Virus record (IMG/VR): IMGVR_UViG_2537562173_000012
Reading direction: 5' to 3' (one strand)
DNA: 12,009 bases
From: a virus
Lineage: Duplodnaviria; Heunggongvirae; Uroviricota; Caudoviricetes
Each line of letters begins with the position of its first letter. Positions within the stretch are counted from its first letter, which is position 1. Shown here in pieces: positions 3,572 through 7,693 of this stretch. Under the pieces are notes generated by a model, which was not told the origin of the DNA, did not search any database, and saw only the letters and a list, made by a program, of their open reading frames with translations. The translations under genes and the position numbers were made by a program.

Positions 3572-4288
<717 letters not shown>

Positions 4289-4295
4289 CACGTAA

Positions 4296-4733
4296 ATGAT
4301 TAAAGAACGTATTTCTTATATCATTCCGATTGCGATGGATGAAGGCAACCCAGTAACTCCAGTTCTTATCTATGAAATGGATAAAGACTCCCATGAAGTG
4401 GATCTATCATTTGGCGCTTTTTTTATCGGCCTTAAGGCTACAAAAAAATATTCCATAGGCATTGAGGTTTTCAATGCTCAAGAAATACCGATACCAATTG
4501 ACACAAAACTGTACTCCAACCATAAGTTTTTTACGGTAGCAGAAGCCAACGATGGAGAAACCATCGTATCAACTTCTATGAGAATTAACTTCCCAAGGGT
4601 GAAAATTATCAAGCCTGGGATATTCGAAGTTAGAGCATCACTGGTTAATCCTGATAAAGGCGAAGTAATTGATGTAAAAAGTTCGTTTTTTGACGTGAAG
4701 ATAACAGGATCAGTTCGCGATGAGTTTAGATAA
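4296..4733 (+). CDS. Hypothetical protein, first gene of a cassette in the rexA/rexB position
   Basis: 145-aa ORF starting 8 nt after the cI stop on the same strand, with no obvious SD (possible coupling to cI). It does not resemble RexA, no catalytic motif was recognised, and the stretch looks more A+T-rich than its neighbours by eye. Confidence 0.6.
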   Translation: MIKERISYIIPIAMDEGNPVTPVLIYEMDKDSHEVDLSFGAFFIGLKATKKYSIGIEVFNAQEIPIPIDTKLYSNHKFFTVAEANDGETIVSTSMRINFPRVKIIKPGIFEVRASLVNPDKGEVIDVKSSFFDVKITGSVRDEFR

Positions 4734-4839
4734 CAAGGTTGCTCAGCTTCGTCCAAATCAAAACATATCTCGCCCAATTGGACACTATTCCACTGATGAT
4801 GCATACTCACGGCATGGTGGAGGAAACGGCGGAGGTAAC

Positions 4840-5091
4840 ATGCTTGAGGCTAGAGTTGCAAAGCTAGAGTCTGATGTTGAATACATCAAGCGCGATCTCG
4901 CTGAAGTAAAGTCAGATATAAAATCTGTAGATTCTCGTCTGTCAGGTATTGAGACAAGCATTAGCTCAGCAAAAATCACCATCAAGGCATCTGCGGTCGT
5001 TGTCAGTTTCGTGTTCGCATTTTGCGCCTACATTTTTGGAAGTTATGTTTCCAAAATCCTTGATGCCTTAAACGGACTCGTTCTTAAGTAA
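4840..5091 (+). CDS. Hypothetical small membrane protein (coiled-coil plus C-terminal TM helix), second gene of the cassette
   Basis: GGAGG SD at 4831-4835 before the ATG at 4840 gives an 83-aa product. The same frame is open from ATG 4720, giving the 123-aa form in the ORF track. Heptad-like LEARVAKLESDVEYIKRDLAEVKSDIKSV is followed by a hydrophobic stretch AVVVSFVFAFCAYIFGSYV. A terminator follows directly. Confidence 0.55.
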   Translation: MLEARVAKLESDVEYIKRDLAEVKSDIKSVDSRLSGIETSISSAKITIKASAVVVSFVFAFCAYIFGSYVSKILDALNGLVLK

Positions 5092-5098
5092 CACACAA

Positions 5099-5124
5099 CC
5101 CGGCCTCAGCGCCGGGTTTTCTTT
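5099..5124 (+). terminator. Intrinsic terminator ending the cI-cassette transcript
   Basis: CCCGGC (5099-5104) pairs with GCCGGG (5111-5116) around a 6-nt loop, followed by TTTTCTTT. Confidence 0.7.
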
Positions 5125-5281
5125 ACCTCACGATCCCCTTCACCCAATAACACATAACCAATTGTATTTATTTGAAAATTAATAGATACAACTCACTAAA
5201 CATCGCAATTCAGATCTCTCGATCACCTCCCAAGCCACACACCCCTGCAAAAAAATAAATCTATATAAAAAACATACAGAT

Positions 5282-5344
5282 AACCATCTGCGGTGATAAA
5301 TTATCTCTGGCGGTGTTGACATAAATACCACTGGCGGTGATACT
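5282..5344 (+). promoter_or_regulatory. OL3-OL2-OL1 operators and the PL promoter
   Basis: OL3 at 5282-5298, OL2 at 5302-5318 and OL1 at 5326-5342 match the lambda operator consensus. PL -35 TTGACA (5316-5321) and -10 GATACT (5339-5344) are 17 bp apart. Confidence 0.9.
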
Positions 5345-5592: not shown

Positions 5593-5976
5593 ATGACACG
5601 CAGAACTCAGTTCAAAGGCAATTCACGTTCTCGTCGTCGTGAGCGTTTAAAGGCAAAGGCATTAGCTAACGGCGTACTGGCCCGCGAAGAAGCAATAAGT
5701 TCAGAAGTATTACACCGCCCTACTCTAAGCAGAGCGCAGATTCAGGCTAAAGGTACTCACGAAACGCCTGAGCGCATAGAAGACGCTAAGCCAATTAAGT
5801 TCATAGCACAGGACGTGATCTGGCAACAGAAAGAATACAGACGCAATCTGGAGCGAGCGGCCATTGTGTACGCGAATGAGTTTGGACATAAGCAACCAGA
5901 AACTGGTGTATGTCTTCCAAACGTAGCCATTTACGCGGCAGGCTACCGGAAATCAAAACAACTGACGGCGAGGTAA
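5593..5976 (+). CDS. N: N-like transcription antitermination protein (P22 gp24-like arginine-rich motif)
   Basis: 127-aa ORF with AGGAGG SD 5 nt before the ATG. N-terminal arginine-rich motif NSRSRRRERLKAKALA. First gene downstream of PL and nutL. C-terminus VAIYAAGYRKSKQLTAR resembles what I recall of P22 N. Confidence 0.8.
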   Translation: MTRRTQFKGNSRSRRRERLKAKALANGVLAREEAISSEVLHRPTLSRAQIQAKGTHETPERIEDAKPIKFIAQDVIWQQKEYRRNLERAAIVYANEFGHKQPETGVCLPNVAIYAAGYRKSKQLTAR

Positions 5977-6592: not shown

Positions 6593-6724
6593 GCGCCTAT
6601 AGCAGATTTACGAGTCTGCTATGTGAGCAATGTCGCTCGTAACTAAACAGGAGCCGACTTGTTCTGATTATTGGAAATCTTCTTTGCCCTCCAGTGTGAG
6701 GGCGATTTTTTTAACGGAGGAAAT

Positions 6725-7693
6725 ATGAGTGAAGTAACAGATTTAGTTGTTATTGAAAAAGCAAATGCAATGACTGTATTTCAGTCTGCCGACCAGATTG
6801 AAGAAATCCTTCAAAAGGTTGAACGTGAAGTTATGTCCTTTGTTCCTGATATCACAACGGCAAGGGGCAGAAAGGAGATCGCTTCTCTGGCGTATAAAGT
6901 TGCGCAGACGAAAACATATCTCGATGGTCTTGGCAAAGACCTTGTTGCTGAACTGAAGGAAATTCCAAAGCTAATTGATGCTAACCGCAAGACAGTGCGT
7001 GATCGCCTTGATGAGCTGAAAGCCAAGGCGCGCCAGCCTCTTACTGATTATGAGGAGGAGCAGGCACGGATTAAAGCCGAAGAAGAAGCTAAGGCAGCAG
7101 CCGAAGCTCTCGCAAAGCAAATTGAGTCTGACCATGAAATAGCGATTTTGATGGATCGCGAATTTGACCGCCAAAGAGAAGAGGCAAGACTCAAAGCGGA
7201 GCAGGAAAAGCGAGAGCATGAAGAACGCTTAAAAAGAGAAGCTGAAGAGAAAGCCAGAGCAGAAGCCGAAGCAAAGGCAAAAGCCGAAATTGAAGCAGCA
7301 GCAAGGCGAGAAGCAGAAGCTAAGGCCGCAGCGGAACGTGCAGAGCGTGAACGCATTGAAGCCGAGCAACGAGCACAGCGCGAAGCAAAAGAGGCAGCAG
7401 AACGAGCTGAAAGAGAAAAGCAGGCAGCAATTGAAGCAGAACGCCGAAAAGCACAGGAGGAGGCAGAACGAATCCGGCGCGAGGCTGAAGCAAAAGAGCA
7501 AGCCAGAATAGCAGAAGAAAAAAGAATCAAGGACGAAGAAGAGCGTAGAGCAAAGGATAAAGCTCACCGGAAAGAAGTAAATAACAAAATACTTGCTGAC
7601 CTTATCAAGGTTGGTGCATCAGAAGATGTTGCTAAAAATATCATAACAGCCATCGTAAAAGGCGAAGTATTCGCAACAAAAATAACCTACTAA
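6725..7693 (+). CDS. Hypothetical protein with a long E/K/A/R-rich coiled-coil central domain (TolA domain II-like composition)
   Basis: GGAGG SD 5 nt before the ATG at 6725; 322 aa. Residues about 110-290 are almost entirely Glu, Lys, Ala and Arg in EAEAKAKAE-type repeats, flanked by ordinary N- and C-terminal domains. Confidence 0.75.
   Translation: MSEVTDLVVIEKANAMTVFQSADQIEEILQKVEREVMSFVPDITTARGRKEIASLAYKVAQTKTYLDGLGKDLVAELKEIPKLIDANRKTVRDRLDELKAKARQPLTDYEEEQARIKAEEEAKAAAEALAKQIESDHEIAILMDREFDRQREEARLKAEQEKREHEERLKREAEEKARAEAEAKAKAEIEAAARREAEAKAAAERAERERIEAEQRAQREAKEAAERAEREKQAAIEAERRKAQEEAERIRREAEAKEQARIAEEKRIKDEEERRAKDKAHRKEVNNKILADLIKVGASEDVAKNIITAIVKGEVFATKITY

Follow-up and report, generated by a model that had tools for sequence, protein, structure and literature searches.

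Introduction

Nested in-frame genes are known in phages, each having been found one phage at a time. The lambda S gene is one small membrane-protein gene with two in-frame starts, giving the longer and shorter co-assembling products of the S105/S107 pair. In P22 the sieB gene, which specifies an exclusion system, reportedly contains an in-frame internal start (an account said to be that of Ranade and Poteete in 1993) which yields a truncated product, Esc, that modulates full-length SieB. Here we describe a candidate for such a gene, gene 2, in a 12,009-nucleotide (nt) stretch of Caudoviricetes DNA (IMG/VR record IMGVR_UViG_2537562173_000012). The whole of this stretch is called the window, and features lie on its + strand, the leftward direction of lambda, unless otherwise indicated. 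Gene 2 (4720–5091) and the preceding gene 1 (4296–4733) form a two-gene cassette beside a lambda-type cI repressor gene, and the comparison of related sequences makes it rather likely that gene 2 is a nested gene in which one frame specifies two proteins, a long form that is tethered and a short form that is not.

Three further systems are relevant. SPP1 gp24.1, a homologue of XhlA, has an in-frame internal AUG with a ribosome-binding site that was noted as a dual start, and XhlA kills only together with XhlB. Endolysin CTP1L is reported to have an internal in-frame start producing a C-terminal module which associates with the full-length protein. In lambda, the promoter P_LIT is embedded in upstream coding sequence and transcribes rexB alone, giving RexB without RexA.

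Gene 2 belongs to none of these systems by sequence or defining context. It has in common with lambda S two in-frame starts, each with a ribosome-binding site; the S starts are 2 codons and one positive charge apart, whereas those of gene 2 are separated by 40 codons encoding a disordered, partner-linked peptide and a linker. Gene 2 also lies in an immunity operon and not in a lysis cassette, shows no sequence similarity to S and has no endolysin gene nearby. The original prediction, made from the DNA sequence alone, had likened the two starts to holin/antiholin pairs, and this likeness stands as an analogy but not in spacing or genomic context.

The closest positional counterpart is rexA-rexB, which occupies the same slot between cI and the immunity terminator T_IMM as two genes co-oriented with cI, the distal one encoding a membrane protein. 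P_LIT may have a parallel in a candidate promoter-like element, which is embedded in the N-terminal extension of gene 2 in 14 of 40 extension types. RexB differs in being polytopic, while the gene 2 protein has a single C-terminal helix and its separate unit is nested in-frame; no homology to RexA or RexB was detected by Pfam, NCBIfam or PADLOC. With P22 SieB/Esc the locus would share a lambdoid prophage exclusion gene with an in-frame internal start (the exclusion role being proposed here), but sequence and position are unrelated, and no counterpart of the sieB antisense-RNA switch was found, gene 1 containing a weak antisense promoter-like site. PBSX XhlA and SPP1 gp24.1 (PF10779) resemble the gene 2 protein in their small size, N-terminal coiled coil and single membrane helix at the C terminus; the gp24.1 isoforms differ by 9 residues, without a linker or partner module. 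CTP1L, a soluble enzyme from a Gram-positive phage, has neither sequence nor role in common with the gene 2 protein.

What distinguishes the present case is that one rule extends over hundreds of uncharacterised prophage genes which databases call ‘hypothetical’ or ‘hemolysin XhlA’. In these genes the codons of a Gly linker form GGAGG, 7 nt ahead of a codon able to serve as a start, and the coding sequence upstream often contains a putative promoter. A second product, probable for the whole family, is absent from current annotation, and the case shows how an RNA signal can be the force that conserves a protein motif (GGGxGGG).

Results and Discussion

Two in-frame starts in gene 2

The gene 2 frame is open from an ATG at 4720, as originally predicted, and runs to 5091 to encode 123 amino acids (annotated WP_000050903.1), with a full-length match to phrog_6136. 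Since this start overlaps the gene 1 stop codon (TAA, 4731–4733) by 14 nt, the long form is probably translationally coupled to gene 1; only AGGA (4706–4709), at a distance of 10 nt, precedes it as a weak Shine-Dalgarno (SD) sequence. At 4831–4835 lies GGAGG, followed after four nucleotides (TAAC) by an in-frame ATG at 4840, from which a nested short form of 83 amino acids (4840–5091) equal to the whole structured module could be made. The internal SD is spelled by Gly codons of the long form, GGT GGA GGA AAC GGC GGA GGT AAC (4816–4839), which encode the Gly-rich linker GGGNGGGN. Calculated pairing with the 3' tail of 16S rRNA was -10.8 kcal/mol at 4840 versus -4.1 kcal/mol at 4720, in agreement with the earlier view that the internal SD is the convincing one. 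The N-terminal extension removed by the internal start comprises 40 residues (net charge +1), is polar (mean hydropathy -1.1) and is predicted to be disordered.

The internal gene 2 site was by far the strongest ribosome-binding site of the operon: pairing at the gene 1 start was -3.1 kcal/mol, which amounts to almost no SD, and the cI start was without one. The lambda PRM transcript is leaderless, so the absence of an SD at cI is expected.

RNA structure masking the internal start was considered and rejected, the window hairpin GGCAUG/CAUGCU having a z score of 0.08 against shuffled sequences. RNAalifold on 54 relatives predicted no conserved pairs over the internal start, and no known RNA family was found in the window by Rfam.

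Conservation of the internal start

Searches for related proteins and loci returned 73 clusters of close relatives, with DNA for about 130 loci, and a profile search recovered at least 284 clusters (50% identity) at E ≤ 1e-10, ranging from Enterobacterales to Vibrio, Pseudomonas, Alphaproteobacteria and Desulfobacterota. Members share a plan in which a variable N-terminal peptide of 25–60 residues leads into a Gly run and then the segment (D/N)-M-(L/Q/E)-E-x-RVAKLESDVEYIKRD; a coiled coil, also variable, and a membrane helix follow. The helix head RVAKLESDVEYIKRD is nearly invariant across the family. Related phage genes that keep the internal start arrangement number in the hundreds and are uncharacterised.

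The codon at the internal site was start-capable in all of 88 distinct Gly-linker open reading frames (ORFs), being ATG in 84, GTG in 3 and TTG in 1. DNA was fetched for nine further non-Met relatives with Leu at this site, and together with the first one they used TTG in 10 of 10 cases. Elsewhere in the same ORFs TTG accounted for 13.3% of 858 other Leu codons (Fisher p = 2.6e-9), and at the invariant Leu of RVAKLE, five codons downstream, for 0 of 73. Nine of the ten TTG sites had GGAGG or GGGAGG 6–7 nt upstream and the remaining one GGGGG at 7 nt; all GTG and TTG internal starts were preceded at 6–8 nt by GGAGG, GGGAGG or a G-run such as GGGGG. There were two exceptions with Ile (ATT), of which one lacks an extension and is a stand-alone short gene, while the other (L155) lacks an SD and is probably expressed in the long form only. 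An attempt to find Leu variants in viral contigs by a degenerate DNA pattern gave unrelated tail-fibre-like proteins and was replaced by specific protein look-ups.

The upstream SD was similarly constrained. Of 68 distinct sequences, 58 had GGAGG at 4–12 nt before the internal start, most often at 7 nt (43 sequences), while synonymous recoding based on local codon usage gave 23.6 ± 3.7. When each independent N-terminal type was represented by one sequence (types below 40% identity to each other), GGAGG was present in 33 of 40, with 25 at 7 nt, compared with a null of 13.8 ± 2.8 and a maximum of 24 in 2000 recodings. These counts bear on the suggestion that the GGAGG-ATG juxtaposition is a chance by-product of Gly codons. 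Any GGN run can spell GGAGG, and about a third of sequences still do so under the synonymous null; against this stand the excess over every recoding, the preferred spacing fixed at 7 nt and the rarity of GGA before another Gly in the flanking genes (12.6%). On this comparison chance is effectively refuted.

Codon -4 was GGA in 55 of 69 sequences (80%), whereas the other linker Gly codons were GGA in 13–47%. Synonymous sites of the adjacent invariant helix were saturated (1.7–2.2 bits), so the constraint on the SD is not mere recent common descent. In the alphaproteobacterial loci L034, L040 and L045 GGAGG is spelled through CCG GAG GAT (Pro-Glu-Asp), and the nucleotide motif thus outlives the amino acids that usually encode it. 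Averaged over the family, anti-SD pairing was strongest at the internal start (-10.4 kcal/mol), followed by the long start (-5.8), the gene 1 start (-4.9) and random sites (-1.6), and distant relatives included stand-alone short genes which begin at the internal site (L031, L033, L039 and L154). Synonymous constraint thus acts specifically on the internal SD and on the start codon that follows it.

An alternative is that only the 123-amino-acid protein is made, and that GGAGG and Met are kept for other reasons. The Gly residues might serve as a flexible hinge, the helix might need a hydrophobic residue where it begins, ribosomes might pause at an SD-like site during co-translational membrane insertion, or nucleotides might be homogenised here because modules recombine at this junction. 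Annotations uniformly call the long form, the SD of the window has an atypical spacing, mosaic breakpoints (described below) fall exactly at the linker, and L155, with ATT and no SD, indicates that such a state can exist. A hinge or helix-start requirement nevertheless fails to explain GGA at one codon while flanking Gly codons vary, and leaves unexplained both the exclusive use of TTG among the Leu replacements and the persistence of GGAGG through Pro-Glu-Asp codons. Homogenisation would flatten all synonymous sites, including those found to be saturated in the adjacent helix, and a pause site requires no start codon 7 nt downstream. We therefore regard exclusive production of the long protein as rather improbable.

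Evidence for the long form

In 99% of 71 distinct sequences the frame upstream of the internal start ran without a stop for 25 codons or more, versus 3% for frame +2. Its first ATG was tied to the end of the upstream ORF: the offset lay between -14 and +6 nt for 79 of the 100 loci, and start-stop overlaps measured 14, 8, 4 or 1 nt. Within the N-terminal type found in the window, the motifs DNxVxQLRPNQ and DAYS were retained through synonymous change. Taken with the constraint on the internal site, both start regions carry signs of purifying selection at the sequence level.

These observations argue against the converse possibility, that only the 83-amino-acid protein is made and that 4720–4839 is promoter and leader in which the open frame is incidental. 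That the internal SD is the strongest of the operon, that a promoter-like element lies in this region and that some distant relatives are without an extension would all fit such an arrangement. In one relative (P0053) the gene caller had picked the internal ATG; this apparent short-only protein was rejected as such, since the long frame is open there. The open frame, the placement of its start at the end of the upstream gene, the retained peptide motifs and an SD signal at the long start that is above background (-5.8 versus -1.6 kcal/mol) are unexpected if the region is untranslated, and we consider production of the short form alone improbable. Of the two options originally offered, an 83-residue protein made alone or long and short isoforms from one frame, the comparative evidence favours the second.

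In one viral contig (L099, 2900–3010) a frameshift or a sequencing error has put the extension and the coiled-coil part into separate frames. Since only the internal SD and ATG can express the coiled-coil part there, this may be a natural short-only variant, and it also counts in favour of the leader interpretation.

A promoter-like element inside the extension

A candidate internal promoter, TGGACA-17 nt-CATACT, was identified at 4779–4807 within the extension, a feature absent from the original prediction. It is sigma-70-like, and its predicted transcript start (A4814) lies about 26 nt before ATG 4840. As the region holds 6 such sites versus 4.6 expected, a single match is unremarkable, and it was the recurrence of the element in relatives that was informative. 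There the -10 hexamer ended 29–43 nt before the internal start, with a 17-nt spacer. By distinct sequence the element was present in 43 of 75, compared with 5.3 ± 2.3 in shuffled sequences; by N-terminal extension type, 14 of 40 had it 25–45 nt ahead of the internal start, at about 32–36 nt, compared with 1.4% of 508 control positions within the same genes (p = 1.5e-16).

The -10 hexamer (CATACT, CATAAT or CATCAT) occurred in all three codon phases, in 22 sequences in phase 0, 15 in phase 2 and 5 in phase 1, reading His-Thr/Asn/Asp in phase 0 and Ala-Tyr-Ser or Ser-Ser-Phe in phase 2. Since the hexamer falls in different reading phases, conservation at the nucleotide level may be argued.

Of the 42 distinct sequences that carry the promoter-like element, 15 have a further conserved motif, YATGG (Tyr/His-Gly; 4813–4817 in the window), just before the Gly run and 6–7 nt past the -10-like hexamer. 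Its position coincides with the expected transcript start, and it may be conserved either as an initiation site or for the residues it encodes.

Modular exchange at the linker

Gene 1 and the initial 40 codons of gene 2 are also present in Salmonella phage epsilon34 (gp45/gp44) and in two E. coli prophages, which beyond the linker carry three unrelated coiled-coil/membrane modules. The breakpoints in DNA similarity fell at window position 4836 in one comparison and 4844 in the other, that is, at the linker and internal start. Modularity was then counted over 861 locus pairs. No pair combined an extension below 30% identity with gene 1 at 60% identity or more (0 of 31), while similar C-terminal modules were accompanied by unrelated extensions in 80 of 104 pairs. 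With the extension travelling alongside gene 1 and the C-terminal module being exchanged, the linker/start region appears to be the joint between partner-specific and effector modules. The conserved DNA of the SD, start codon and helix head seems, from these sequences, to act as a recombination joint between the modules.

Protein architecture and relationship to XhlA

Residues 1–32 of the gene 2 protein (4720–4815) form the polar extension, predicted to be disordered, that is inherited together with gene 1. The coiled-coil and transmembrane predictions suggested with the original prediction located six heptads at V46–I88 (4855–4983), with L, I, V or M at 12 of 13 a/d positions, and a C-terminal transmembrane helix at A90–S111 (4987–5052), the Kyte-Doolittle 19-residue maximum being 2.1 around residue 92. 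The C-terminal position of this helix suggests that the protein is tail-anchored. An AlphaFold model made with 74 relatives gave a predicted local distance difference test score (pLDDT) below 50 for residues 1–36 and one continuous helix from 40 to 121. With no confident structure before residue 37, we take the fold to begin at the internal Met. In the modelled structure, the short product is exactly the structured part, namely the coiled coil and C-terminal membrane helix.

The NCBI name of the gene 2 protein is ‘hemolysin XhlA’. XhlA-type architecture was indeed found, in that the protein is short with a coiled coil followed by a single C-terminal transmembrane helix. The Pfam XhlA profile (PF10779) scored 19.3 bits with the long form and 20.0 bits with the short form, below its gathering threshold of 34.7; among the 74 relatives 48 matched at E ≤ 0.01 (best E 8.3e-6), and a generic coiled-coil family, FlaC_arch, matched more of them than XhlA did. 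The neighbouring features are cI, gene 1, a terminator and PL/N, with no XhlB-type holin or endolysin gene.

These results allow a lysis or membrane accessory to be weighed, either an XhlA-like holin partner or an envelope factor, whose isoforms would time or temper membrane damage. The weak XhlA similarity points in this direction, as do weak matches of gene 2 to hemolysin and holin/anti-holin PHROGs, the dependence of XhlA killing on XhlB and the suggested dual start of the SPP1 homologue. The sub-threshold Pfam score and the lack of an adjacent holin or endolysin gene speak against it, and because gene 2 lies upstream of PL in the repressor operon, expression is expected in the lysogen and not late in the lytic cycle. 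A role of this kind is in our view unlikely.

Proposed mechanism and role

Sequence features and their conservation are what was observed; from them we infer, as follows, which proteins are made, whether the promoter acts, what the partner binds and what the pair does. On the PRM-cI-gene 1-gene 2 transcript, ribosomes ending gene 1 would re-initiate at ATG 4720 and produce the 123-residue long form, which would comprise the disordered 32-residue peptide that travels with gene 1, the 8-residue Gly linker, the coiled coil and the C-terminal anchor. The Gly codons of the linker, serving as an SD, would also bring ribosomes directly to ATG 4840 to make the 83-residue coiled-coil/membrane short form, and the promoter-like element at 4779–4807 probably yields, in this lineage, a transcript able to encode the short form only. 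Production of the short form would thus be favoured by having the strongest SD in the operon and perhaps by a promoter of its own. The N-terminal peptide of the long form would be the means by which the Ig-like product of gene 1 acts on the membrane protein, while the untethered short form would set stoichiometry as either bulk subunit or buffer. Since synonymous mutations in the SD can separate the isoforms, the two-isoform design provides an experimental handle.

By analogy with rexAB, the pair is probably a lysogen-expressed exclusion or abortive-infection module, a role suggested by co-expression with the repressor, by the rexAB slot and by the pairing of a soluble, sensor-like protein with a membrane protein. 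A compact two-gene cassette which alternates with rexAB beside the lambda repressor is therefore a candidate new lysogen-expressed anti-phage function. More tentatively, and as a possibility to which we give well under even weight, the family may constitute a widespread, undescribed exclusion or abortive system in which the membrane effector is deliberately made both sensor-tethered and untethered by means of a nested promoter, SD and start, the linker being conserved largely as a ribosome-binding site and doubling as the joint for sensor/effector shuffling.

Several points weigh against this account. The 4-nt spacing between GGAGG and ATG in the window was found in only 2 of the 40 types and is at the short edge of the functional range, and the second GGAGG (4819–4823), 16 nt from ATG 4840, is too far away; with such unusual spacing, the internal start of this allele may be weaker than the family norm. 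Public annotations of this exact gene, on 556 contigs, give the 123-residue form only, and the exact 83-residue sequence was never called among them. Selection on the extension was mild, with a ratio of nonsynonymous to synonymous substitution rates (dN/dS) of 0.36–0.8, only a little below 1. The promoter match in the window is modest (9 of 12 positions, with C at the first -10 position), and 26 of the 40 types lack the element at threshold. The defence role is argued purely from position: PADLOC returned weak coiled-coil-type matches (E 0.003–0.03) and no credible defence family, and literature searches turned up nothing on the gene 1/gene 2 pair.

Gene 1 and other partner genes

Gene 1 encodes a cytoplasmic protein of 145 amino acids, the partner of gene 2, which was modelled with confidence as an all-beta Ig-like sandwich (pLDDT 91.5). 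Assigning a function from this fold was not successful, as the structural neighbours were generic (GH2 Ig-like domains, Wzt CBD, RhoGDI and uncharacterised phage proteins), and the UniRef name ‘Wzt C-terminal domain’ was taken as no more than a lead. The antisense promoter-like site mentioned above, TTGAAA-16-AATATT with an upstream TG, lies within gene 1 at 4447–4474 on the minus strand and points toward cI.

An upstream partner ORF of 90–170 amino acids preceded nearly all family members. The 64 distinct partners included 42 members of the gene 1 family and 15 of a Zn-ribbon family. In 37 distinct loci the gene directly upstream of the pair encoded an HTH_3 protein in 15 and carried Peptidase_S24 in 12, the typical architecture of prophage repressors.

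The second partner family, of about 107 amino acids with paired Cys motifs (Zn-ribbon-like), was seen with the same linker/start architecture in 15 distinct loci, including L006, L007, L018, L030, L034, L037, L040, L045 and L076. A third family of about 90 amino acids was present with this architecture in 3 loci. Loci with the second or third partner family were mostly without the promoter-like element.

Genomic context of the cassette

The lambda-type cI repressor gene (3575–4288), annotated as a LexA family protein and matching HTH_3 and Peptidase_S24, is the first gene of the lysogenic operon. An intrinsic terminator at 5097–5128, with stem AACCCGGC...GCCGGGTT followed by a T-run, ends the immunity operon and is the equivalent of lambda T_IMM. 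Positions 5097–5200 were 90% identical to lambda 35728–35826, just past rexB in the T_IMM region, and in L136, a prophage built on the same backbone, the space between cI and N is filled by rexA-rexB (L136 4356–5645). With the T_IMM region retained downstream and rexA-rexB occupying the same slot in L136, genes 1 and 2 form a cassette that takes the place of rexAB, and the original label of ‘cassette’ was appropriate.

The PL promoter (5316–5344; TTGACA-17-GATACT, 10 of 12 positions) lies amid lambda OL operators with repeats TATCACCGC/TACCACTGGCGGTGATA. It is directed away from the cassette, toward the N antiterminator gene (5593–5976), a 127-amino-acid ORF. The cassette was 100% identical to copies in enteropathogenic Escherichia coli (EPEC) E2348/69 and several other E. 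coli strains, while no complete E. coli genome matched the window over more than 64% of its length.

The N ORF of the window is intact, with 126 of 127 residues identical to WP_000198444.1 (‘transcriptional antitermination N peptide’) in L003. At the N position the E2348/69 RefSeq record contains only a 69-nt ‘regulator’ pseudogene fragment (L001 7613–7681), and N therefore appears to be under-annotated in that record. Between N and cIII/kil the window carries an ORF of 340 amino acids (6671–7693) composed mostly of E/A/K/R-rich repeats, for which related records give ‘cell envelope biogenesis protein TolA’ or a coiled-coil protein.

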